Source of the DNA: Pseudomonas aeruginosa
Lineage (GTDB): Bacteria; Pseudomonadota; Gammaproteobacteria; Pseudomonadales; Pseudomonadaceae
Assembly (NCBI RefSeq): GCF_001457615.1
Contig: NZ_LN831024.1
Span: 5,160,001 to 5,192,000, forward strand
DNA length: 32,000 nucleotides
Reading direction: 5' to 3'
Part shown: positions 1,043-13,704 of the stretch, piece by piece
Numbering within the stretch: position 1 is the stretch's first letter
Layout of the letters: each line of letters begins with the position of its first letter
Made by a program: the position numbers and the translations under genes
Notes under the pieces: generated by a model
What the model was told of the DNA's origin: nothing
Seen by the model: only the letters and a program-made list of their open reading frames with translations
The model's database searches: none

Positions 1043-3496
1043 TCAGTCCTTCTTCGCCGCGGCCTTGTCCTTCGCCACGACGGTCTCTTTCTCCGCCGGT
1101 TTGTCCTTTTCCTTGTCGTCCTCTTCCATGCCGAGTTCGGATATCTCCTGCAAGCGCGCCACGACCAGATCGTTCACGCTGCCTTTCGGGAAGCGTCCCT
1201 TCTCGTCCTGGGCACCGACCGGCTTGCCCACCAGCAGCGCCAGCGCCTCGTCCACCTCGCGCACCGCGTAGACGTGGAACTGCCCGGCGCGCACCGCCTG
1301 CAACACGCGCTCGTCGAGCATCAGGGTAGTGACGTTGGCGCGCGGGATGATCACACCCTGCTCGCCGGTCAGGCCGCGCGCTTCGCAGAGGCGGAAGAAG
1401 CCCTCGATCTTCTCGTTGACGCCGCCGACCGCCTGCACCTCGCCGAACTGGTTGATCGAGCCGGTAATGGCGAAGCACTGCTTCAAGGGCGTCCGCGACA
1501 GCGCCGAGATCAGCGTGCAGACCTCGCCCAGCGAGGCGCTGTCGCCGTCCACGTAGCCGTAGGATTGTTCCAGGGCGATGCTGGCGGAGATTTCCAGGGG
1601 GAACTCCTGGGCGTAGCGGCTACCCAGGTAGCCGGTAAGGATCATCACGCCCTTGGAGTGGATCGGCTGGCCGAGGTTGACTTCGCGCTCGATATCGACG
1701 ATGCCGCTGCTGCCCGGATAGACGGTCGCGGAAATCCGCGCCGGCACGCCGAACACCGAGTCGCCCACCTCCAGCACGGTCAGTCCGTTGCACTTGCCGA
1801 CCGCGGCGCCAGCGGTGTCGATCAGGATGATCCCCGCCAGCATGTCGTCGAGGATCCGCGCCGACACCCGTCCGGTGCGGGTCTGCTTGGCCTTGAGGGC
1901 ACGCTCGATGTGGCCGAGCTGGATCACCTCCTCGTTCGCCAGCTGACGGATGAAATCGGCTTCGCTGACCAACTGGAACAGATCGCCGATCCGTGCCGAA
2001 AGCCGCCCCTGGTGCTCGGCCAGGCGCGCGCTGTAGGTCGCCAGTCGCGCCACCGCCGCGCCGCTGAGGGGCGCCATGCCCTCTTCCGAGGTGCGCGTCT
2101 TGAGCAACTGTGCGAACTGTTCGAGGCTGTCCTCGCCCAGCGGGATGTCCTCGTCGAAGTCCACCAGCACCCGGAACATCTCCTGGAAGTCCGGATCGAG
2201 GTCCTGCAGGGTGTAGTAGATCTGCCGCGAGCCGATGATGATCACCTTCAGTTGCAGCGGGATCACCTGGGGGGTCAGGGAAACCGCAGCCAGGCGGCCG
2301 AGTTCGGCCAGCGGCGACTCCATCTTCAACTGGCGCGACTGCAGGGCACGCTTGAGCGCGTCCCAGACGAACGGCTCGCCAAGCATCTTTTCCGCTTCCA
2401 GGATCAGGAAGCCGCCGTTGGCCCGGTGCAGCGCCCCCGGACGCAACTGCCGGTAGCTGGTGTAGAGCGCCCCCTGGTCCGAGCTGTACTCGATGCGGCC
2501 GAACAGGTTGTCGTAGGTCGGGTGCGACTCGAACACCACCGGCGCGCCGCTGGTCGCGTGGTGGACGATGGCCTGGTTCGGCGCGTACTGCTCGATCAGC
2601 CCTTGCTTGCGCTGGGCGTCGGTGCGGCTGTCGTCGACCAGTTGGTCGACCACGGTCTTCAGCAGGTTCAGTTGCATCGCCTGCAGGTAGGCGCAGACGC
2701 CCGGGTTGTTGTTGTACTTCTCCACCAGAGGCGCCAGCAGGGGCTGCAGGGCCAGGGTGATGGTTTCCTCGTTGAGCTCGCGCAACTGGTTGCTCGACTC
2801 GCGCTTCCACTGCGGCAGGCTCGCCAGTTCCTCGTTGAGGTACTCCTCGAGGGCGGCGATATCCTTGTGGAAACGCTCGCGCTCGGCTTCGGGCAACTGG
2901 GCGAATTCGGCCTCGTCGAGGGCCTTGCCGTCCTTCATCGGGGTGAAGGCGACGTTGGCGCTGTCGCGGTACAGCGCCACGTCCTTCTCCAGGGCGCGCC
3001 GCTCCACCGAGTCCAGGGCGCGGTCGTAGCGCTGGTTGAAAGCGCGGTCGACGGCGTTCTTCTTCTGCTGGTAGGCCGGATGCTCGAAGACCGCCGGGAA
3101 GGTCGACATCAGGTTGTCGATCAGACGGTCGATGTCGGCGCTGAATTCGGTCGCGCTGCCCGGCGGCAGCTCGATCACCCGAGGTTCGCGCGGCTCGTCG
3201 AAATTGTTCAGGTAGACCCAGTCGGAGGGCGTGGCGACGCGCTTGCCCTCGGCTTGCAGATAGCGTTTGACGAAGGAGAAGCGTCCGGTGCCCGGCTCGC
3301 CCATGACGAATACGTTGTAACCCGGACGCGGCATCGCCACACCGAACTGCAGCGCCTCGACCGCACGCTCCTGGCCCAGCACGCCGCGGAAGGGCTCCAG
3401 GTCATCGGTGGTGTCGAAGGCGAATTGCTCGGGAGCGAACGGGCGGGTCAGTTCTTCTGGCGCCAGGCGCAGGCCGGCAGCGACGGAATCGGGCAT
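1043..3496 (-). CDS. Lon-like (LonC/YcbZ-like) serine protease with a degenerate AAA+ module
   Basis: 822-aa ORF. The preferred start is MPDSVAAG at 3496, with AAGGA 6 nt upstream; an alternative ATG lies at 3511. The C-terminal Lon proteolytic domain has the catalytic-serine context VDGDSASLGE and a downstream Lys region. The N-terminal P-loop-like GEPGTGRFS and Walker-B-like GGFLILEAEK are separated by about 300 aa of helical insert. Confidence 0.9.
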   Translation of the reverse strand: MPDSVAAGLRLAPEELTRPFAPEQFAFDTTDDLEPFRGVLGQERAVEALQFGVAMPRPGYNVFVMGEPGTGRFSFVKRYLQAEGKRVATPSDWVYLNNFDEPREPRVIELPPGSATEFSADIDRLIDNLMSTFPAVFEHPAYQQKKNAVDRAFNQRYDRALDSVERRALEKDVALYRDSANVAFTPMKDGKALDEAEFAQLPEAERERFHKDIAALEEYLNEELASLPQWKRESSNQLRELNEETITLALQPLLAPLVEKYNNNPGVCAYLQAMQLNLLKTVVDQLVDDSRTDAQRKQGLIEQYAPNQAIVHHATSGAPVVFESHPTYDNLFGRIEYSSDQGALYTSYRQLRPGALHRANGGFLILEAEKMLGEPFVWDALKRALQSRQLKMESPLAELGRLAAVSLTPQVIPLQLKVIIIGSRQIYYTLQDLDPDFQEMFRVLVDFDEDIPLGEDSLEQFAQLLKTRTSEEGMAPLSGAAVARLATYSARLAEHQGRLSARIGDLFQLVSEADFIRQLANEEVIQLGHIERALKAKQTRTGRVSARILDDMLAGIILIDTAGAAVGKCNGLTVLEVGDSVFGVPARISATVYPGSSGIVDIEREVNLGQPIHSKGVMILTGYLGSRYAQEFPLEISASIALEQSYGYVDGDSASLGEVCTLISALSRTPLKQCFAITGSINQFGEVQAVGGVNEKIEGFFRLCEARGLTGEQGVIIPRANVTTLMLDERVLQAVRAGQFHVYAVREVDEALALLVGKPVGAQDEKGRFPKGSVNDLVVARLQEISELGMEEDDKEKDKPAEKETVVAKDKAAAKKD

Positions 3497-3594: not shown

Positions 3595-3921
3595 TCACCG
3601 ATGTACCAGGTCGGCGCAGCGCAGGCAGTATTCCGCCGCAGGCAGGGCGGCCAGGCGCGCCGGTTCGATAGCCTCGCCACAGCGCTCGCACTGGCCGTAG
3701 CGACCTTCCGCCAGGCGCAGGCGGGCCAGGCCGACCTGGCGCATCCCCGCCTCCGCCTCGGCGAGCAGGCCTTCGAGCACTTCGTCGTTCTGGCGCTGCA
3801 CCGCCTGCTCGGCAAAGTCCGGCGAATGGCTGCGCGCCAGGTCCCGGCGGATCGCCGCGGCGCGTGCCGCGTACTCGGTCGCCAGGGTTTCCAGGGCGGT
3901 AGCGGGGTCGAAAGCGCTCAT
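3595..3921 (-). CDS. TraR/DksA-family C4 zinc-finger protein (108 aa)
   Basis: C-terminal CERCGEAIEPARLAALPAAEYCLRC is a CxxC-N17-CxxC motif. The start is chosen at MSAFDP (ATG 3919-3921) because a strong AGGAGG lies about 6 nt upstream. The track ORF extends to 3999-4005 without an RBS. Confidence 0.85.
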   Translation of the reverse strand: MSAFDPATALETLATEYAARAAAIRRDLARSHSPDFAEQAVQRQNDEVLEGLLAEAEAGMRQVGLARLRLAEGRYGQCERCGEAIEPARLAALPAAEYCLRCADLVHR

Positions 3922-4702: not shown

Positions 4703-6559
4703 ATGCCGAAACGCCTGTTGCCCTGGATGGCGCTGTGCGCCTGCTCCCCCCTTCTGGCTTCGCCCACGGTTCCCGAGGCCCGCCTCCAGCAACTGGCCGC
4801 CGATCCCTACTGGATCGCCCTCGGCCACTACGAACGCGGCAAGCTCGGCGGTTGGCGCAGCTACGTCGACGACGAGCGGTTCTTCCTCGCCGACAACGGC
4901 GAGAGCCACCCGGACGCCGAACTGGCGGCCACGCTAAAGGCGCTCTATGCCTCGCCCAGCCTTGGCGACAAGCATGCCCAGTGCGTCTACCCGGCGCGCA
5001 CCCGCTGGCTGCGCCAGCAACTGCAACTCGACGACCTGCCGCAGCCGCAGTGCGGCGAATACGACAACTGGTACCGCGACATCAACCCGCACAGCGCGGT
5101 GCTGGTGTTCCCCGCGGCCTACCTGAACAGCCCGTCGTCGATGTTCGGCCACACCCTGCTGCGCATCGACCAGGCCGACGTCACCAGCAACAACACCGCC
5201 CTGCTCAGCTACGCGCTGAACTTCGGCGCCTACATCGAAGGCATGGACAACAGCATCCTCTATGCCTGGAAAGGCCTGATGGGCGGCTATCCCGGCCTGT
5301 TCGCGCTGGTCCCGTACCGGGAGAAGCTGGCCGAGTACAGCCGCCTGGAGAACCGCGACCTCTGGGAATACAAGCTGAACCTCACGCCCGAGGAGACCGG
5401 GCGCATGGTCGAACACGTCTGGGAACTCAAGCAGGTCCGCTTCGACTACTACTTCTTCGACGAGAACTGTTCGTTCCGCCTGCTCGAACTGATGGAGATC
5501 GCCCGCCCGGGCATCGAGCTGACCGAGCAGTTCCCGCTTACCGCGATCCCCACCGACACCGTCCGCGCGGTGAAGAACGCCGGGCTGATCGAGCGCATCG
5601 ACTACCGGCCGTCGCGCGAGAAGGAACTGCTCGCCCGCGCCGAACCGCTCGACCATGCCGAGCGCGACTGGGCCAAGCGCCTGGCGGACGACGACAGCCT
5701 GCTCGACGCTCCCGACTTCAAGGCCCTGCCGATGCCGCGCCAGGCGCTGATCCAGGACGCCGCCTTCCGCCTGGTGCGCTACCGCGCCACCGGTCAGGCG
5801 CGTGACAGCGGCATCGCCTCGCGCAGCTACAACCTGTTGCGAGCGATCAACCGCAACCCGCCGCCGGACCTCCAGGTCGAGCGCCCCGGCCAGCCGGAGG
5901 ACGGCCACGAGTCACGGACCTGGCAGTTCGGCGTCGGCAGCCGCGATGACCGCGCCTTCGCCGAATACGGCCTGCGCATGGCCTACCATGACCTCGCCGA
6001 TAACGCCTATGGCTTCCCCCTCGGCGCGCAGATCGAGATCGGCCAGCTCAAGCTGCGCCAGTACGAAGGCAACCGCTGGCAGTTGCAGAATCTCGACCTG
6101 GTCACCATCCGCTCGCTGACCCCGCGCAACCAGTTGCTCAAGCCGCTGTCCTGGCAGGTCGCCGGCGGCCTGGAGCGGGTGCCGGGCGAGGACGGCGACG
6201 AAAACCTGGTCAGCCACCTCAACGGCGGCGCCGGCGGCAGCTGGATGTTCGGCGACGACTTGCTGCTCTACGCCATGGGCACCGCGCGGATCGAGAACAA
6301 CAGGGACTTCGCCGCCGCCATCGCCCCGGCGGTGGGCTTCGACAGCGGCCTGCTGTGGCGCAACCCGCTGGGCAACCTGACCCTGGAGGCCAAGGGCGAC
6401 TACTTCCACAACGGTGAAGTGCGCCGCAGCCTGGGCTTCGTCCAGCAGGTGGAGCTGGGCCGCGACCTCGGCCTGCGCCTGAGCGCCGAACGCGAGTTCA
6501 GCCATGTCGGCAAGCCGATCAACGAGGTGAAGCTGGAGCTGCGCTGGTACTACTACTGA
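4703..6559 (+). CDS. DUF4105 (Lnb N-terminal periplasmic domain) protein with a C-terminal beta-barrel-like region
   Basis: Signal-like N-terminus MPKRLLPWMALCACSPLLA. The central region (FGHTLLRID, YFFDENCSFRLLEL) matches DUF4105. The last ~200 aa show alternating hydrophobic patterning and end in RWYYY, an aromatic OMP-type C-terminus. The track ORF starts at TTG 4697; ATG 4703 is preferred. Confidence 0.8.
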   Translation: MPKRLLPWMALCACSPLLASPTVPEARLQQLAADPYWIALGHYERGKLGGWRSYVDDERFFLADNGESHPDAELAATLKALYASPSLGDKHAQCVYPARTRWLRQQLQLDDLPQPQCGEYDNWYRDINPHSAVLVFPAAYLNSPSSMFGHTLLRIDQADVTSNNTALLSYALNFGAYIEGMDNSILYAWKGLMGGYPGLFALVPYREKLAEYSRLENRDLWEYKLNLTPEETGRMVEHVWELKQVRFDYYFFDENCSFRLLELMEIARPGIELTEQFPLTAIPTDTVRAVKNAGLIERIDYRPSREKELLARAEPLDHAERDWAKRLADDDSLLDAPDFKALPMPRQALIQDAAFRLVRYRATGQARDSGIASRSYNLLRAINRNPPPDLQVERPGQPEDGHESRTWQFGVGSRDDRAFAEYGLRMAYHDLADNAYGFPLGAQIEIGQLKLRQYEGNRWQLQNLDLVTIRSLTPRNQLLKPLSWQVAGGLERVPGEDGDENLVSHLNGGAGGSWMFGDDLLLYAMGTARIENNRDFAAAIAPAVGFDSGLLWRNPLGNLTLEAKGDYFHNGEVRRSLGFVQQVELGRDLGLRLSAEREFSHVGKPINEVKLELRWYYY

Positions 6560-7107
6560 GCCAGCCTCCGACGCACCTCCATCAGGGCGAAGCCGAGCAG
6601 GTTGAGGCCTTGCCAGGTCGCCGGCTCGGCTGCCAGGGGATCGCTCGCGGCCAGGCCGATGCCCCAGATCGCGTCCACCGGGCTGGCCTCGACCAGCACC
6701 CGGTCGGCGGTGCCCAGAAGGTATTTCTTCAGCGAAGCGTTCTGGCCGAACTTGCCGAGGTTGCCTTCGATCACGATTCCCACCCGCTCGGCGTTCCAGC
6801 GTGCCTCGTCGAAGCCGGCGACTTCGCGGCCGAGGGCCTTCGCCTCGCCTGGGCTGCGCGCCGCCAGGATGCGCTCGAGCAACCTAGGGTCGTCGAACAA
6901 GCGTGCCTTGGCCGCCATCATGTAATGCTCGGCGCTGGCGTAGCGCACCCCGTCGAGCTTGAACGAAGCCTCGTACCACTGGCTGAAACAGCTCTTGCCG
7001 ACCTTGTCATCCGTCGCCGGGCGATGTCCCCAGAAATACAGGTATTTGAAGCTTTCGCCGGCCGCGCAGCGCTGGCGCAGCCGCTCGACGTCCATTATCT
7101 CGCTCAT
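6553..7107 (-). CDS. NADAR-family protein (YbiA-like, DUF1768)
   Basis: This is the last 184 codons of the 542-aa track ORF: MSEIMDVERL...FKYLYFWGH...FSQWY...F.LDGVRYASAEHYMMA.KARLF......ILAA.SPGEAKALGR.V.GFD...W......IV..GN..KF.QN..L...LL.T....LVEASP.D.IWGIG. These are the signature blocks of the NADAR/YbiA family. An alternative ATG lies at 7113. Confidence 0.85.
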   Translation of the reverse strand: MSEIMDVERLRQRCAAGESFKYLYFWGHRPATDDKVGKSCFSQWYEASFKLDGVRYASAEHYMMAAKARLFDDPRLLERILAARSPGEAKALGREVAGFDEARWNAERVGIVIEGNLGKFGQNASLKKYLLGTADRVLVEASPVDAIWGIGLAASDPLAAEPATWQGLNLLGFALMEVRRRLAQ

Positions 7108-7162: not shown

Positions 7163-8758
<1,596 letters not shown>

Positions 8759-8868
8759 CACTGCTTATCCTTCAAGATAAAGATCGATATGAAAATATAT
8801 AGAAATAGCCAGGCATCTCTCCATCGAATTCGCCGACGAAGCGCAATAAAAAATTTATTCACCTTTAA

Positions 8869-8881
8869 AATCAAACAGTTA
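8869..8881 (+). promoter_or_regulatory. candidate IHF site between the AT-rich upstream region and the sigma-54 promoter
   Basis: AATCAAACAGTTA matches the IHF core WATCAANNNNTTR. It lies about 30 bp upstream of the -24 element, the usual architecture of sigma-54 promoters. This is a motif match only. Confidence 0.35.
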
Positions 8882-8910
8882 AGCAAGAAACAGTCTCATC
8901 GATAAAAACC

Positions 8911-8926
8911 TGGCACGCCGCTCGCT
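8911..8926 (+). promoter_or_regulatory. sigma-54 (RpoN) -24/-12 promoter of the rtc operon
   Basis: TGGCACgccgcTCGCT matches the consensus TGGCAC-N5-TTGCW in 10 of 11 defined positions (15 of 16 nt with the spacer) with correct spacing. It faces the SPFH-rtcB-NTase-rtcA genes and is divergent from rtcR. The predicted transcription start is near 8937. Confidence 0.75.
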
Positions 8927-9072
8927 ATATCCATTTCGACCGCATCGCCCATGCAGGCCGACGGGTCGGGACTCCAGTCCCGCCGGTGCCCGAGCCCACC
9001 CCTGGTGTCGGCGTCGTGCATGCCGCCCGCAACCACGACGGTCATTCGCGAATGACGGCAATGCCGCTTCGC

Positions 9073-9146
9073 GGTTCGATAGCTCAGCCTGGTAGAGCAA
9101 CCATCCACGAAATGGTCTGTCGCGGGTTCGACTCCCGCTCGAACGT
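9073..9146 (+). tRNA. tRNA-Arg(ACG)-like cloverleaf inside the rtc operon leader; non-canonical, so possibly a tRNA-like RNA element rather than a decoding tRNA
   Basis: Hand-folded cloverleaf. Acceptor GGTTCGA/TCGAACG (6 pairs plus a G1:G72 mismatch). U8 A9. D arm GCTC-AGCCTGGTA-GAGC. Anticodon arm ACCAT-CCACGAA-ATGGT (anticodon ACG, C at position 33). Variable loop CTGTC. T arm GCGGG-TTCGACT-CCCGC. No encoded CCA (the next bases are TTGCC). I believe reference annotations place a tRNA-Arg here but cannot verify that. Confidence 0.65.
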
Positions 9147-9417
9147 TGCCTTAACGGCAATCACTCAATGGCAACACCCGCCGGTGTGGCCGAGGCGAAC
9201 TGCGCAAGCGGCCAGGAAGGCCGGAGAACGCAAGGGAGCCGAAGCCGCCGCCGGCCCGTCCGGCCCGCGGTTCGGGCACGGGGCAAGGCAGGCCGGGGAT
9301 CGAGGGAATCGATCGTATGGACAGGACGTCCGCCAGGCCAACCTCCTCCGCGCTCCACCCACGACGCTCGACGGGCCGGCAACACCGGCACCACGGAAGA
9401 ATGAAAGGAATGAAGAG

Positions 9418-10563
9418 ATGAAAATGCTGAAGCGCTTTATCGTGAAGAAGAACGAACGCGGCCTGCTGTATTCCGAAGGCGACTTCTTCGCCGTGCTCGA
9501 ACCGGGCACCTACCGCCGCTTCGATCCGTACGACCGCCTGAGCCTGGAAAGCTTCAGCCTGAACACCCCGCAGTTCGAACACCGCCTGGCCGGCTACCTG
9601 CGGCAGAGCGAACCGCAACTGGTGGAGCGCTACTTCACCCGGATGGACCTGGGCGACAACGAGGCCGGCCTGCGCTACGAGGACGGCGTGCTGGTGGAGC
9701 TGCTCGCACCGGGCAGCCGCCGACTGTACTGGAAAGGCCAGACCGAGCAGCGCCTGGAGCGCATCGACCTGACCCAGGACTATCGATTGTCCGCCGCGCT
9801 GGTCGCCCAGTTGCACCAGCCGAACCTGCGCGACCGCGCCCTGGCGGGCCTGGACGCAGTGTTGCTGGTCCAGGTGCCGGCGTTCCAGGTCGGCGTGCTC
9901 AAGGTCGACGGCGCCCTTGCCGGCCTGCTGCAAGCCGGACAATACGGTTTCTGGCGCTACAACCGGCAAGTCAGCGTGGAACTGGTCGACACCCGTATCC
10001 AGGCGCTGGAGGTCAGCGGCCAGGAGATCCTCACCCGCGACAAGGTCAGCCTGCGCCTGAACCTCGCCGCCAATTGGCGCTACAGCGACGTGCTCACCGC
10101 CTTCTCGCGGCTGAGCAAACCGCTGGAGTATCTGTACCGCGAACTGCAGTTCGGCCTGCGGGCGGCAGTGGGCACCCGTACCCTCGACGAACTGCTGGAG
10201 AACAAGCAGTCGATCGACGAAGCGGTCAGCGCCCACCTGGCCGCCAAGCTGGAAGACAGCGGCCTGGAAGTGAGCGGCCTGGGCGTACGCGACATCATCC
10301 TCCCGGGCGAAATGAAGACCCTGCTGGCGCAGGTGGTGGAGGCGGAGAAGGCGGCCCAGGCCAATGTGATCCGCCGCCGCGAGGAAACCTCGGCGACCCG
10401 CTCGCTGCTGAATACCGCGAAGGTCATGGAGGAAAACCCGACCGCGCTGCGTCTGAAGGAACTGGAAACCCTGGAGCGGGTGGCCGAGCGCATCGACCGG
10501 ATTTCGGTATTCGGTGGCCTGGACCAGGTATTGAACGGACTGGTCACGCTGAAGCAGGCCTGA
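9418..10563 (+). CDS. SPFH/band-7 (stomatin/prohibitin-like) domain protein, no predicted TM segment (381 aa)
   Basis: Start at MKMLKRFIVKKNERG with GAAAGGAA upstream. The SPFH core is EILTRDKVSLRLNLAANWRY...LQFGLRAAVG..TLDELLENK..I......LEDSGLEVSGLGVRDIILPGEM, followed by a C-terminal coiled-coil-like AEKAAQANVIRRREE. The track ORF starting at 8986 is a spurious extension across the tRNA-like element. Confidence 0.9.
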   Translation: MKMLKRFIVKKNERGLLYSEGDFFAVLEPGTYRRFDPYDRLSLESFSLNTPQFEHRLAGYLRQSEPQLVERYFTRMDLGDNEAGLRYEDGVLVELLAPGSRRLYWKGQTEQRLERIDLTQDYRLSAALVAQLHQPNLRDRALAGLDAVLLVQVPAFQVGVLKVDGALAGLLQAGQYGFWRYNRQVSVELVDTRIQALEVSGQEILTRDKVSLRLNLAANWRYSDVLTAFSRLSKPLEYLYRELQFGLRAAVGTRTLDELLENKQSIDEAVSAHLAAKLEDSGLEVSGLGVRDIILPGEMKTLLAQVVEAEKAAQANVIRRREETSATRSLLNTAKVMEENPTALRLKELETLERVAERIDRISVFGGLDQVLNGLVTLKQA

Positions 10564-10618: not shown

Positions 10619-11833
10619 ATGAAAGACATGAATATCCTCGAAGTGGCCGGCGGCAAGCCGATCAAGCTCTGGACCCAGGGCGTCCCGGTGGAGGAGGAAG
10701 CGCGCCAGCAGTTGCTGAACACGGCGAAGATGCCCTTCATCTTCAAGCACCTGGCGGTGATGCCTGACGTACACCTGGGCAAGGGCTCGACCATCGGTAG
10801 CGTGATCCCTACCCTCGGCGCGATCATCCCGGCCGCGGTGGGCGTGGATATCGGCTGCGGAATGATCGCCGCGCGCACCTCGCTGGTCGCCGCCGACCTG
10901 CCGGACAACCTGCACGGCCTGCGCAGCGCCATCGAGCAGGCGGTACCCCACGGCAAGACCTTCGGCCGCCGCGACCGCGGCGCCTGGCACGAGGTACCGG
11001 AGGCCACCGACCAGGCATGGAAGGCGCTCGCCGGTCGCTTCAAGGCGATCACCGACAAGCACCCGAGGCTGGAGAAGACCAACAACCGCCAGCACCTGGG
11101 AACCCTCGGCACCGGCAACCACTTCATCGAGGTCTGCCTGGACGAGGCCGACCGCGTCTGGTTCATGCTGCACAGCGGTTCGCGCGGGGTCGGCAACGCC
11201 ATCGGCAACCTGTTCATCGAACTGGCCAAGGCGGACATGCGCCAGCACATCGCCAACCTGCCGGACAAGGACCTGGCCTACTTCGAGGAAGGCAGCCGGC
11301 ACTTCGACGACTACGTGGAAGCGGTCGGCTGGGCCCAGGATTTCGCCCGGCAGAACCGCGCGCTGATGATGCACGCGGTGATCGAGGCGGCGCGCCAGGT
11401 GATCCGCAAGCCGTTCGAAGCCAACCTGGAGGCGGTCGATTGCCACCACAACTACGTGCAGAAGGAGCGCCACTTCGGCCAGGAGGTACTGGTCACCCGC
11501 AAAGGCGCGGTGTCCGCGCAGAAGGGCCAGCTCGGCATCATTCCCGGCTCGATGGGGGCGAAGAGCTTCATCGTCCGCGGCCTCGGCAACCAGGAAGCGT
11601 TCTGCTCGTGCAGCCACGGCGCCGGGCGGACCATGAGCCGGACCAAGGCGAAGAAGGTCTTCAGCGTCGCCGACCAGGCCCGCGCCACCGCCCACGTCGA
11701 ATGCCGCAAGGACGCCGACGTGATCGACGAGATCCCGATGGCCTACAAGGACATCGACCGGGTCATGGAAGCCCAGCGCGAGCTGGTGGAAGTGCTGCAC
11801 ACCCTGCGTCAGGTGGTGTGCGTGAAAGGATGA
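10619..11833 (+). CDS. rtcB: RNA 3'-phosphate/2',3'-cyclic-phosphate ligase RtcB
   Basis: 404 aa with the RtcB metal- and GTP-binding signatures: PDVHLGKGSTIGSV, VGVDIGCGM, GTLGTGNHFIE, HSGSRGVGN, CHHNY, IIPGSMG, and SCSHGAGR containing the catalytic His. AAGGAAAG RBS upstream. Confidence 0.97.
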   Translation: MKDMNILEVAGGKPIKLWTQGVPVEEEARQQLLNTAKMPFIFKHLAVMPDVHLGKGSTIGSVIPTLGAIIPAAVGVDIGCGMIAARTSLVAADLPDNLHGLRSAIEQAVPHGKTFGRRDRGAWHEVPEATDQAWKALAGRFKAITDKHPRLEKTNNRQHLGTLGTGNHFIEVCLDEADRVWFMLHSGSRGVGNAIGNLFIELAKADMRQHIANLPDKDLAYFEEGSRHFDDYVEAVGWAQDFARQNRALMMHAVIEAARQVIRKPFEANLEAVDCHHNYVQKERHFGQEVLVTRKGAVSAQKGQLGIIPGSMGAKSFIVRGLGNQEAFCSCSHGAGRTMSRTKAKKVFSVADQARATAHVECRKDADVIDEIPMAYKDIDRVMEAQRELVEVLHTLRQVVCVKG

Positions 11834-11869: not shown

Positions 11870-12682
11870 ATGAACAGGGAAGAACGCCATCCGCTCCCCG
11901 CCGCCATGCGCGAGCGGGTACTGGATGAGCTGGAACGGATCGAACGCGAGCACGACGTAGTCGTGCTCTACGCCTGCGAGTCGGGCAGCCGGGCCTGGGG
12001 CTTCGCTTCGCCGGACAGCGACTACGACGTACGCTTCGTCTATGTGCATCAGCCCGAGTGGTATCAGCGCGTCGAGGAACCTCGCGACGTGATAGAACGC
12101 CCGCTGAGCGACGAGCTGGACATCAGCGGCTGGGAGCTGCGCAAGGCGTTGCGCCTGATGCGCAAATCCAACCCGGCCCTGCTGGAGTGGCTCGGCTCGC
12201 CGCTGGTGTATCGGGAAGAGCCTGGCGTGCGCGAGGAACTGCTCTGGCTGGGCAACGCCTTTCACTCCGTACCTGGCAGCCGCCATCACTACCTGTCGAT
12301 GGCACGCAAGAACTACCGCGGCTACCTGAAGGGCGACAGCGTCCGGCTGAAGAAATACCTCTACGTCCTGCGCCCGTTGTTCGCGGTGCGTTGGCTGGAT
12401 GCAGGCCTGGGCTTGCCGCCGGTGGCGTTCGAGAGGCTAGTGGAAGCCACACTGGACGACCCGTCGCTGCGCGAAGAGCTGGATGCCCTGCTGAGCCTCA
12501 AGCGTCAGCGCGACGAATCGGCCTACGGCCCTCCGCGCCTGGCGCTGCAACGCTTCATCGAAGCGGAGTTGCTCCAGGCCGAACGAGGGGCCGCCCAACC
12601 AACCGGCGCGCGCCAGGACAGCCGACTGCTGGATCGCTACCTCCACGACAAGATATGGCAATACACAAGGGAAACCTCATGA
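11870..12682 (+). CDS. Pol-beta-superfamily nucleotidyltransferase domain protein (COG3541-like), RtcB-associated
   Basis: 270 aa. The N-terminal minimal NTase motif ESGSRAWGFASPDSDYDVRFVY is a G-S...D-x-D signature. The stop codon overlaps the rtcA start (ATGA at 12679-12682). Confidence 0.85.
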   Translation: MNREERHPLPAAMRERVLDELERIEREHDVVVLYACESGSRAWGFASPDSDYDVRFVYVHQPEWYQRVEEPRDVIERPLSDELDISGWELRKALRLMRKSNPALLEWLGSPLVYREEPGVREELLWLGNAFHSVPGSRHHYLSMARKNYRGYLKGDSVRLKKYLYVLRPLFAVRWLDAGLGLPPVAFERLVEATLDDPSLREELDALLSLKRQRDESAYGPPRLALQRFIEAELLQAERGAAQPTGARQDSRLLDRYLHDKIWQYTRETS

Positions 12683-13704
12683 GAAAGGACCTCATCGAAC
12701 TCGACGGCAGCGAAGGTGGCGGGCAGATCCTGCGTAGCGCCCTGAGCCTGTCGATGACCAGCGGCCAGCCGCTGCGCATCCGCAACATCCGTGGCCGGCG
12801 CAGCCGTCCGGGGCTGCTGCGGCAGCACCTCACCGCGGTGCGCGCGGCGGCGGAAATCTGCGCGGCCGAGGTCGAGGGTGCCGAGCTCGGCTCACGCGAG
12901 CTGGCGTTCCGGCCCGGTGCGATCCGCGCCGGCGACTACGCCTTCGCCATCGGCTCCGCCGGCAGTTGCTCGCTGGTACTGCAAACCCTGCTGCCGGCGC
13001 TGCTCGCGGCCAACGGCGAAAGCCGGGTGAGGATCAGCGGCGGCACCCACAATCCACTGGCGCCGCCGGCGGACTTTCTCCGCGACAGCTGGCTGCCGCT
13101 GTTGCAGCGGATGGGCGCGGAAGTCGACCTGGAACTGCTGCGCCACGGCTTCGTACCCGCCGGCGGTGGCGAGCTGCTGGCGCGGGTACGCCCGGCACGC
13201 TGGCGGCCGCTGCAACTGGAGCATCCCGGCGCGGCGCTGCGGCGCCAGGCGCGGGCGCTGCTCGCCGGGATTCCCGGGCACGTCGGCGAGCGTGAGCTGG
13301 AGAGGGTCCGCCAGCGCCTCGGTTGGAGCGACGAAGAACGCCAGCTGGAGTTCCTCGCGGAGGACCAGGGGCCGGGCAACGCCCTGCTGCTGCGGATCGA
13401 CTGCGAGCACATCTGCGCGACCTTCTGCGCCTTCGGCCAGGCCGGCGTCAGCGCCGAACGGGTGGCGGAACAGGTCGCGACGCAAGCCATCGGCTGGATG
13501 GAAAGCGGCTGCGCGGCGGACGAGCACCTCGCCGACCAATTGCTGCTGCCCATGGCCCTGGCCGGCGCCGGCAGCTTCACCACGCCGCGGCTGAGCGCCC
13601 ATCCGCAAAGCAACCGCCGGGTTATCGAACGCTTCCTGCCGGTGAGGATCGGCGACCAGGCGCTGGACGGCGGCGGTCATCGCATCGTCATCACATCGGC
13701 TTGA
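12679..13704 (+). CDS. rtcA: RNA 3'-terminal phosphate cyclase RtcA
   Basis: 341 aa. LDGSEGGGQILRSALSLSM..GQP..I.NIR..R..PGL..QHL...RAAAEI is the RtcA family signature, with further conserved blocks GSAGS..LVLQTLLP and DEHLADQL. ATG at 12679 in the same frame as the 548-aa track ORF. Confidence 0.95.
   Translation: MRKDLIELDGSEGGGQILRSALSLSMTSGQPLRIRNIRGRRSRPGLLRQHLTAVRAAAEICAAEVEGAELGSRELAFRPGAIRAGDYAFAIGSAGSCSLVLQTLLPALLAANGESRVRISGGTHNPLAPPADFLRDSWLPLLQRMGAEVDLELLRHGFVPAGGGELLARVRPARWRPLQLEHPGAALRRQARALLAGIPGHVGERELERVRQRLGWSDEERQLEFLAEDQGPGNALLLRIDCEHICATFCAFGQAGVSAERVAEQVATQAIGWMESGCAADEHLADQLLLPMALAGAGSFTTPRLSAHPQSNRRVIERFLPVRIGDQALDGGGHRIVITSA

Follow-up and report, generated by a model that had tools for sequence, protein, structure and literature searches.

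The tRNA-shaped element PA4581.1 upstream of the SPFH–rtcB operon of Pseudomonas aeruginosa is a b7a-tRNA, a non-decoding tRNA look-alike

Introduction

Between the regulatory gene rtcR and the divergent RNA repair operon of Pseudomonas aeruginosa, which begins with the genes for an SPFH/Band-7 protein and the RNA ligase RtcB, lies a 74-nt element with the shape of a tRNA. The stretch of DNA analysed here, referred to as the window, comprises 32,000 nt of contig NZ_LN831024.1 (assembly GCF_001457615.1, positions 5,160,001 to 5,192,000 of the forward strand), and positions are those of the window unless another locus is named. The element is already known, both as the annotated gene PA4581.1 and through the RNA class b7a-tRNA. 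The analysis identifies it as the b7a-tRNA of P. aeruginosa, a tRNA look-alike that is neither a decoding tRNA nor an arginine-specific bait.

The closest described RNA is b7a-tRNA itself, a predicted non-coding RNA next to Band-7 and RtcB genes that is strongly tRNA-like and is thought to be functionally redundant with YrlA (bioRxiv 10.1101/312249, summarising Burroughs and Aravind 2016). The window element shares with this class a cloverleaf that is recognised by tRNA models, an adjacent Band-7/SPFH gene, an RtcB neighbourhood with a divergent RtcR, and the existence of homologous elements. Nothing defining separates the two, and the element is filed as a member, the class being compared by way of the preprint summary. 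The PAO1 annotation lists the element as PA4581.1, 'tRNA-Arg4'. A 2026 paper places it between rtcR and the rtc cluster and describes it as having no CCA and a non-A at 'position 20', with the five other tRNA-Arg variants of P. aeruginosa having -CCA (PMC13637947; the numbering in this paper is linear, and its 'G73' is the standard G72). In a late isolate from cystic fibrosis, PA4581.1 also belongs to the genes with the greatest increase (PMC8743555).

The Y RNA YrlA (RF02553) resembles the element in having a tRNA-like module with a D/T-loop elbow (here G18 G19, UUCGA and an invariant D stem), in belonging to RtcR-controlled rtcB operons, in having a ring-shaped scaffold protein as partner and in occupying the equivalent slot in sister Pseudomonas loci. 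The two differ in that the window scores 15.8 bits against a YrlA gathering score of 69, and in that a full four-arm cloverleaf is present here, whereas YrlA has a tRNA-like domain fused to a Y stem. The window element also lacks the bulged stem that binds Ro, and its partner is an SPFH protein rather than a TROVE protein; the operon open reading frames (ORFs) tested encode SPFH, RtcB, RlaP and RtcA with no rsr, the rest of the window not having been screened for TROVE.

A further related system is the horizontally transferred tRNA L-array, which has been described with HNH and rtcB genes nearby (Santamaria-Gomez et al., NAR 2021; PMC8421152). In Anabaena, translational stress de-represses a tRNA array together with rtcB, the HNH gene and a slipin gene (PMC10272220; PMC8421152). 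Metagenomic relatives of the present locus resemble these systems in having arrays with an HNH and rtcB cassette. The window, in contrast, is without an array and carries a single non-canonical unit under predicted RtcR/sigma-54 control.

Results

The cloverleaf and its departures from tRNA-Arg(ACG)

ARAGORN identifies a single tRNA in the window, a tRNA-Arg(acg) at 9073-9146(+), so no L-array is present here. The Rfam tRNA model RF00005 covers the element over its full length with 50.0 bits (gathering score 29, E=5e-08), and 1:72 is the sole pair marked as non-canonical. The acceptor stem GGUUCGA/UCGAACG, with G1·G72 unpaired, is followed by U8 and A9. The D stem GCUC/GAGC encloses the D loop AGCCUGGUA, which includes G18 G19, and the anticodon stem ACCAU/AUGGU carries the loop CCACGAA with C33. 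The variable loop is CUGUC, the T arm reads GCGGG-UUCGACU-CCCGC, and U73 is followed by UGCC, which means that CCA is not encoded.

With the elongator tRNA-Arg(ACG) the element has in common the cloverleaf, U8, A14, G18 G19, UUCGA and a similar anticodon loop (CCACGAA against CUACGAA). It differs in G1·G72, U20, C33, U73 and the missing CCA, and in an anticodon that is not conserved among orthologues. Position 20 of the D loop is a U where the E. coli tRNA-Arg(ACG), whose reference sequence was verified against 5,426 genomes, has A20, and the discriminator U73 is neither A nor G where the E. coli tRNA has A73. By the established E. coli rules, A20 is the main identity base for arginyl-tRNA synthetase, and A or G at position 73 and C35 are also needed. 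C35 and G36 are both present in the anticodon loop of the element. A blastn search of E. coli genomes with the 74-nt element returned no match at E <= 1e-3, for a query that is short and a database that is huge.

The minimum-free-energy fold is the cloverleaf, both for the element alone and within 229 nt of leader, and it includes a further hairpin directly 3' of the element (9146-9160). The thermodynamic z-scores of the cloverleaf are weak (-1.1 and -1.45), and thermodynamics alone is therefore no proof of the structure; the z-scores are not used as evidence.

An earlier note on this DNA, made from the sequence alone, had listed the four arms, U8, A14, G18G19, TTCGA, the G1:G72 mismatch, C33 and the lack of CCA, all of which are correct on reading of the sequence and by ARAGORN and Rfam. 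It had also called the element atypical for a working elongator tRNA, and U20 and U73 add two departures that it had missed.

Conservation and covariation of the element

A scan for RtcR with one genome per species gave 80 loci, and in 19 of these ARAGORN finds a tRNA-like gene at the same leader position, with 'anticodons' that differ or are impossible. Across approximately 90 orthologous elements the D arm, the T arm and the elbow are near-invariant and the anticodon stem covaries. In 27 homologues, 93% of the cells are paired in the cloverleaf, and the covariation score of 0.432 compares with 0.161 in shuffled alignments (none of 500 reached it) and with at most 0.11 when the pairing partners are slid. 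The cloverleaf is also supported by RNAalifold on 81 distinct sequences. It is this comparative evidence, not thermodynamics, that proves the cloverleaf.

The same comparison identifies the parts of the tRNA that are not kept. The 1:72 pair is unpaired in 16 of the 27 homologues, and a feature table of 92 elements shows that only the four inner acceptor pairs are commonly kept, with four to six pairs in most members. No CCA follows the element in these 92 sequences, N73 varies, position 20 is nearly always U, and the anticodon loops range from 4 to 9 nt with many different triplets. Many elements keep a tRNA-like 7-nt loop, CUNNNAA, and the anticodon loop is nevertheless the least conserved part of the family. 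The nearest relatives (86-88% identity) have the loops CGAAGGA and CCAGAAG, and others have UUCG, GAAA or GCAA tetraloops or triplets such as CAU, GAU and UGU. Judging from these sequences, the 'Arg(ACG)' label is an accident of this lineage, because the anticodon loop varies freely.

Compared with b7a elements from other genera, the window element shows 74-88% identity, and compared with genuine tRNA-Arg(ACG) it shows 56-64%, the value for the E. coli tRNA being 64%. A family covariance model (R1), built from the 27 homologues with the window sequence among them, scores the window element at 82 bits and finds further members in Burkholderia and Chitiniphilus. The element is kept at the same place in Pseudomonas, Burkholderiales, Rhodocyclales, Neisseriales and metagenomic lineages, and four P. 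aeruginosa assemblies share an identical leader. Selection thus preserves the L-shape of a tRNA, namely the D stem, G18 G19, the T arm with UUCGA and a short acceptor helix. The module is non-decoding, because the outer acceptor pairs are open, CCA is lacking, A20 and U33 are absent and the anticodon arm varies freely across orthologues.

Linkage to the SPFH gene rather than to RtcR

The gene order at rtcR loci was determined by tblastn, and all strong matches to the element fall at loci where the SPFH gene is the first gene after rtcR. Among 81 rtcR loci, the full tRNA-like unit is present in 24 of the 37 SPFH-first loci and in none of the 44 others (Fisher p=1.5e-11). Scanning metagenomes with an SPFH alignment provided 80 loci, all of them from relatives that share 59% identity or more with the SPFH protein, a range that leaves distant SPFH-RtcB systems such as Anabaena alr0740 outside. 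The element is located 260-540 nt upstream of the SPFH gene at every metagenomic locus with at least 400 nt of upstream DNA, except for two loci of the P. putida type. The linkage is thereby seen at 24 genomic and approximately 60 metagenomic loci. In about half of the 80 metagenomic loci, neither rtcR nor a sigma-54 motif is found within 4 kb. The same scan of viral contigs yielded one locus, with too little upstream DNA. The RNA follows the SPFH-RtcB pair and not RtcR, since it is present without RtcR and absent from rtcR loci without SPFH.

The two rtcR loci without SPFH that were tested (L003 and L012) carry YrlA Y RNAs, with 72-80 bits, at the equivalent place. These are located at L003:3379-3502 and 3744-3850(-) and at L012:3616-3725(-), flanked by rtcB and by an upstream gene, presumably rsr. 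If that gene is rsr, the YrlA cassette and the SPFH-RNA cassette would be alternatives at the same locus.

Upstream of the RNA-SPFH-RtcB cassette, approximately 20 of the metagenomic loci without RtcR have a long array of canonical tRNA genes on the same strand, with as many as 21 members (for example L098:488-2802, L153:2043-3414 and L159:2073-3443). These arrays hold nearly one gene per amino acid, an ordinary tRNA-Arg(ACG) included. In L098, an ORF for an HNH endonuclease (2844-3416) is located between the array and the cassette.

A larger conserved leader RNA

The cloverleaf is one module of a larger conserved RNA. The 37 SPFH-type leaders were aligned from the promoter to the ATG (alignment A3), and RNAalifold was applied to these and to the 81 distinct units. 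Two helices (P1 and P2) form a conserved 5' domain, and a long-range helix is found in the 3' domain of the leader (Table 1). All three are conserved with compensatory changes over Pseudomonas, beta-proteobacteria, enterobacteria and metagenomic lineages. In the window itself, nine of the 12 P2 pairs form. The long-range helix shows 11-17 double-sided changes per pair and is common to the enterobacterial leaders. On the 81 units RNAalifold confirms P1, P2, the cloverleaf and the T hairpin of a further unit termed element a, and it recovers no Y-RNA-like long stem joining the flanks of the cloverleaf. A leader profile used with nhmmer matches the loci without RtcR from P1 to the end of the cloverleaf, and mostly not in the 3' domain. 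At the gathering score, tRNA is the only Rfam family that covers the leader in ten related loci, and at a permissive E-value the window leader gave, besides tRNA, chance-level matches only.

Element a is a second tRNA-like unit located just upstream of the cloverleaf (unit b) in relatives, for example at L001:5634-5707(-) and L017:5642-5715(-) and in the leaders of L032 and L063. It is a full cloverleaf in L001, L041, L013, L017, L018, L020 and L023. In its full form, found in several Pseudomonas and some metagenomic loci, it has a perfect 7-bp acceptor and abuts unit b without a spacer. In beta-proteobacteria and enterobacteria it is a minihelix of acceptor and T arm, often followed by ACC(A/U). 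The window has lost element a and carries a palindromic hairpin in its place. The RNA as a whole therefore consists of P1 and P2, after which come none, one or two tRNA-shaped units, and in RtcB cassettes its place is always immediately upstream of the gene for a soluble, stomatin-like SPFH protein.

Two copies of the decamer CCCGCCGGUG are present in the leader, at 8979-8988 and 9177-9186, and so flank the cloverleaf on both sides. One copy spans the P1/P2 junction and the other belongs to a conserved 'GCAGUACCCGCCGG' block, and both are kept in relatives. The pair could be a repeated protein site or an alternative pairing.

Several of these features may go beyond the published description of b7a-tRNA, namely an anticodon arm that is hypervariable, an acceptor that is truncated, the P1/P2 domain, element a in its tandem or minihelix form, and the location of the RNA either in a sigma-54 leader or behind tRNA L-arrays.

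The SPFH protein PA4582

The protein encoded directly downstream of the leader, PA4582, has no N-terminal membrane segment. Residues 188-379 are stomatin-like, and stomatin forms 16-mer cages. The beta-rich domain of approximately 190 residues that makes up the N-terminus has no sequence match in the PDB. An AlphaFold model of PA4582 (mc31d5755fdf1) has a mean predicted local distance difference test score (pLDDT) of 75, with approximately 90 in the N-terminal beta domain. Foldseek aligns this model with stomatin, HflK/C and prohibitin over the C-terminal 230 or so columns only, and with the major vault protein over its full length (410-417 columns, E=8e-10). The vault, composed of major vault protein and vault RNA, shares with the present system an SPFH-type shoulder, a long helix, N-terminal beta-rich repeats and a small structured non-coding RNA. 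PA4582 is about half the size of the vault protein, and the likeness is at the level of the fold only and known here from a predicted model. It is a hint, not a finding.

Promoter, gene order and annotation of the locus

The SPFH protein is 99% identical to a P. aeruginosa slipin family protein, and the exact protein together with an identical leader occurs in other assemblies, which identifies the locus as PA4581-PA4585 (Table 1). In each of the 37 SPFH-type leaders, a GGCAC-N5-xxGC site occupies the position of the promoter-like site upstream of the element. Transcription is predicted to start near 8937, with the element approximately 136 nt downstream, and the SPFH start codon follows on the same strand 272 nt 3' of the element. 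Neither terminator-like sites nor sigma-70-like sites on the + strand were found in 8600-9700. An internal sigma-70 promoter for the element was considered and rejected on the latter result.

Table 1. Positions of the genes and predicted RNA structures at the b7a-tRNA locus, in window coordinates
Feature	Position	Strand	Evidence and remarks
rtcR (PA4581), CARF and sigma-54 AAA+ activator, divergent from the operon	7163-8758	-	Pfam RtcR 1e-86, Sigma54_activat 2e-49; ATG 8756-8758
Sigma-54 promoter-like site TGGCACGCCGCTCGC (-24 GG / -12 GC)	8911-8925	+	One mismatch to TGGCAC-N5-TTGC; consensus match only
P1 hairpin, conserved 5' domain	8964-8984	+	RNAalifold; pairs 81-100% kept, with GC/AU/GU exchanges
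P2 helix, conserved 5' domain	8986-9021 (8986-8997 with 9010-9021)	+	12 bp; many compensatory pair types over 81 sequences
Palindromic hairpin GUCAUUCGCGAAUGAC	9041-9056	+	16 nt; at the site of element a of relatives (alignment A3)
b7a-tRNA (PA4581.1, annotated tRNA-Arg)	9073-9146	+	tRNA-shaped; G1·G72, U20, C33, U73, without CCA
Hairpin UUGCC-UUAAC-GGCAA	9146-9160	+	Directly 3' of the tRNA-like unit; UGCC/UGUC...GGCA/GACA with compensatory changes (leader alignment)
Long-range helix, 3' leader domain	9274-9355 (9274-9287 with 9343-9355)	+	RNAalifold columns 469-482/591-604
SPFH/Band-7 'slipin' (PA4582 / PaFlo8), soluble	9418-10563	+	Pfam Band_7 7e-28
RtcB RNA ligase (PA4583)	10619-11833	+	Pfam RtcB 1e-131
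RlaP nucleotidyltransferase (PA4584)	11870-12682	+	Pfam RlaP 5e-98
RtcA RNA 3'-phosphate cyclase (PA4585)	12679-13704	+	Pfam RTC 5e-77; ATG 12679 overlaps the RlaP stop codon

An open frame of 525 aa (8986-10563) crosses the cloverleaf into the SPFH gene. A coding role for this ORF was rejected, as the covariation in the leader is of the RNA type and not codon-type conservation. SPFH gene calls of 509-534 aa occur in the databases (P0014, P0044, P0052, P0060 and P0073), which is approximately 130-150 residues beyond the 381-aa protein. These calls are probably over-extended and swallow the leader RNA.

A NADAR-domain gene (6553-7100(-), Pfam 1e-52) is located directly downstream of rtcR on the same strand and shows a weak, sub-threshold match to the NCBIfam anti-phage NADAR model. 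The 542-aa ORF listed for this gene overlaps rtcR and is probably over-long.

Discussion

The element at 9073-9146 is a tRNA-shaped, non-decoding module under purifying selection for the L-shape, inside a larger conserved RNA. As to its function, we consider it about an even chance (a probability of roughly 0.5) that the RNA mimics a tRNA in the manner of a Y RNA and acts together with the SPFH protein and RtcB. The RNA would be transcribed as the first 480 nt or so of an RtcR/sigma-54-dependent SPFH-rtcB-rlaP-rtcA mRNA, if the promoter-like site is used as such, and might be excised from this leader. A protein-binding part consisting of P1 and P2, possibly together with the tRNA body, would associate with rings or cages of the SPFH protein. 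The mimic itself would engage a partner that recognises tRNAs, for example RtcB, RlaP, RtcA or RNase P, and the repair of cleaved tRNAs could in this way be scaffolded or tuned. A more detailed and distinctly more tentative proposal is that a Y-RNA-like non-coding RNA of approximately 230 nt (P1, P2, an optional a as minihelix or cloverleaf, and cloverleaf b) is the cognate ligand of a soluble, vault-like SPFH cage, in a particle that presents the mimic to RtcB, RlaP and RtcA and organises tRNA repair. The cassette would in that case be mobile and be wired either to RtcR/sigma-54, which senses broken tRNAs, or to arrays of spare tRNAs acquired by horizontal transfer.

A number of observations weigh against this proposed role. 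The 13 SPFH loci without a full cloverleaf belong to the P. putida group and the enterobacteria, and the full cloverleaf is thus dispensable in some lineages that keep SPFH. Both tRNA-like units are missing in the P. putida group, and the enterobacteria retain only the minihelix, a T-arm hairpin with a 6-7-bp acceptor-like stem. The template modelling scores (TM-scores) of PA4582 to the major vault protein are low (0.33-0.37). The existence of b7a-tRNA is stated as unvalidated in the Wolin-lab preprint (bioRxiv 10.1101/312249), and the definition of the class used here is second-hand, from that preprint's summary of Burroughs and Aravind (NAR 2016). Quantitative reverse transcription PCR (qRT-PCR) found PA4581.1 RNA at about half the ordinary tRNA level, and strong induction of the Rtc proteins in one strain was accompanied by no change in this level (PMC13637947). 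This result fits strictly RtcR-dependent synthesis poorly and is the main loose end, with cross-amplification of conserved tRNA arms as a possible source.

The element may instead act purely in cis, as a signal for processing by RNase P, Z or E or for stability that separates the 5' RNA (or an upstream tRNA array) from the SPFH-rtcB mRNA, or as a riboregulator of SPFH translation. This alternative, which we regard as possible and less probable than the mimic, would account for the constant location of the element in the 5' leader, on the operon strand and at a fixed distance from the SPFH ATG. It would likewise suit the conservation of the whole leader, including the long-range helix of the 3' domain beside a C-rich tract and the Shine-Dalgarno region, the tandem a and b units that abut like tRNA precursors, the position of the element after a run of real tRNAs in the array-type loci, and the cleavage of M. 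smegmatis YrlA by RNase P in vitro (PMC4201824). However, where RtcR is lacking the 3' domain of the leader has diverged but P1, P2 and the tRNA-like units are retained, which suggests that the RNA unit has a function of its own. Nor would a simple cleavage signal require the D arm and the elbow to be invariant, and an acceptor helix of 4-6 bp is suboptimal for RNase P. A cis-acting role and the role as a mimic are compatible and not exclusive. In an unlikely third scenario, which the earlier note had raised, the mimic is a sentinel or decoy that anticodon nucleases cut, with the 5' half and its 2',3'-cyclic phosphate binding the CARF domain of RtcR, or with the toxin simply soaked up. The activation of the E. 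coli operon by colicin D and VapC (PMC7790460), the 7-nt loop CUNNNAA of many members and the sponge role proposed for array tRNAs (PMC8421152) are in its favour, but the hypervariable loop is often a tetraloop beyond the recognition of any anticodon nuclease. The element moreover accompanies SPFH-RtcB where RtcR is lacking and is missing from all 44 rtcR loci without SPFH, and it would be made only once the promoter had fired, which makes it at best a signal amplifier.

The annotation itself, by which an odd yet functional tRNA-Arg(ACG) gene happens to separate rtcR from the operon, is very improbable. The calls by ARAGORN and Rfam, the presence of C35 and G36 and an RNA level of approximately 50% of canonical tRNAs by qRT-PCR (PMC13637947) speak for it. 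Against it stand G1·G72, U20, C33, U73 and the lack of the CCA that the remaining five variants of tRNA-Arg have, an anticodon that differs even in the nearest relatives, a closer identity to b7a elements than to tRNA-Arg, and an Rfam score of 50 bits compared with 80 for genuine tRNAs in related loci. A decaying and functionless tRNA pseudogene, or the leftover of an island integration site, would explain the several departures from the tRNA consensus, and tRNA genes are common integration sites. The covariation data have in effect already refuted this explanation: every helix is maintained through compensatory changes, and the D and T arms are near-invariant. The element also persists at the same place from Pseudomonas to Burkholderiales, Rhodocyclales, Neisseriales and metagenomic lineages, in a leader that does not vary among the four P. 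aeruginosa assemblies.

The overall idea of the earlier note, a non-canonical tRNA mimic tied to RNA repair, survives this analysis, and its arginine-specific and RtcR-specific parts do not. The position that it gave relative to the predicted sigma-54 start and the SPFH ATG, with no terminator-like site between, is confirmed, as is the placement inside an RtcR/sigma-54 leader on the operon strand, with a site of the type TGGCACGCCGCTCGC kept in 37 leaders. Its parallel with the tRNA-like Y RNAs beside rtcB was apt, given that some rtcR loci without SPFH carry YrlA. A decaying pseudogene, which it had allowed for, is effectively refuted by the covariation across orthologous leaders. The proposed bait for colicin D or stress-only tRNA-Arg is contradicted by the anticodon loop being the least conserved part, and the alignment to genuine tRNA-Arg(ACG) (56-64% identity) gives the kinship no support. 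The specific tie to RtcR fails on the loci where the element accompanies SPFH with no rtcR or sigma-54 motif within 4 kb, and on its absence from all SPFH-less rtcR loci.

These results bear on the annotation of P. aeruginosa genomes, where PA4581.1 is not to be counted as a tRNA-Arg gene in analyses of codon usage or of the tRNA pool, and on database SPFH gene calls, where over-long frames probably swallow the RNA. As a genetically tractable species with a simple copy of the RNA, one cloverleaf under a predicted RtcR/sigma-54 promoter, P. aeruginosa is a good test case. The comparative picture suggests a modular RNA-protein repair cassette that is worth structural study.

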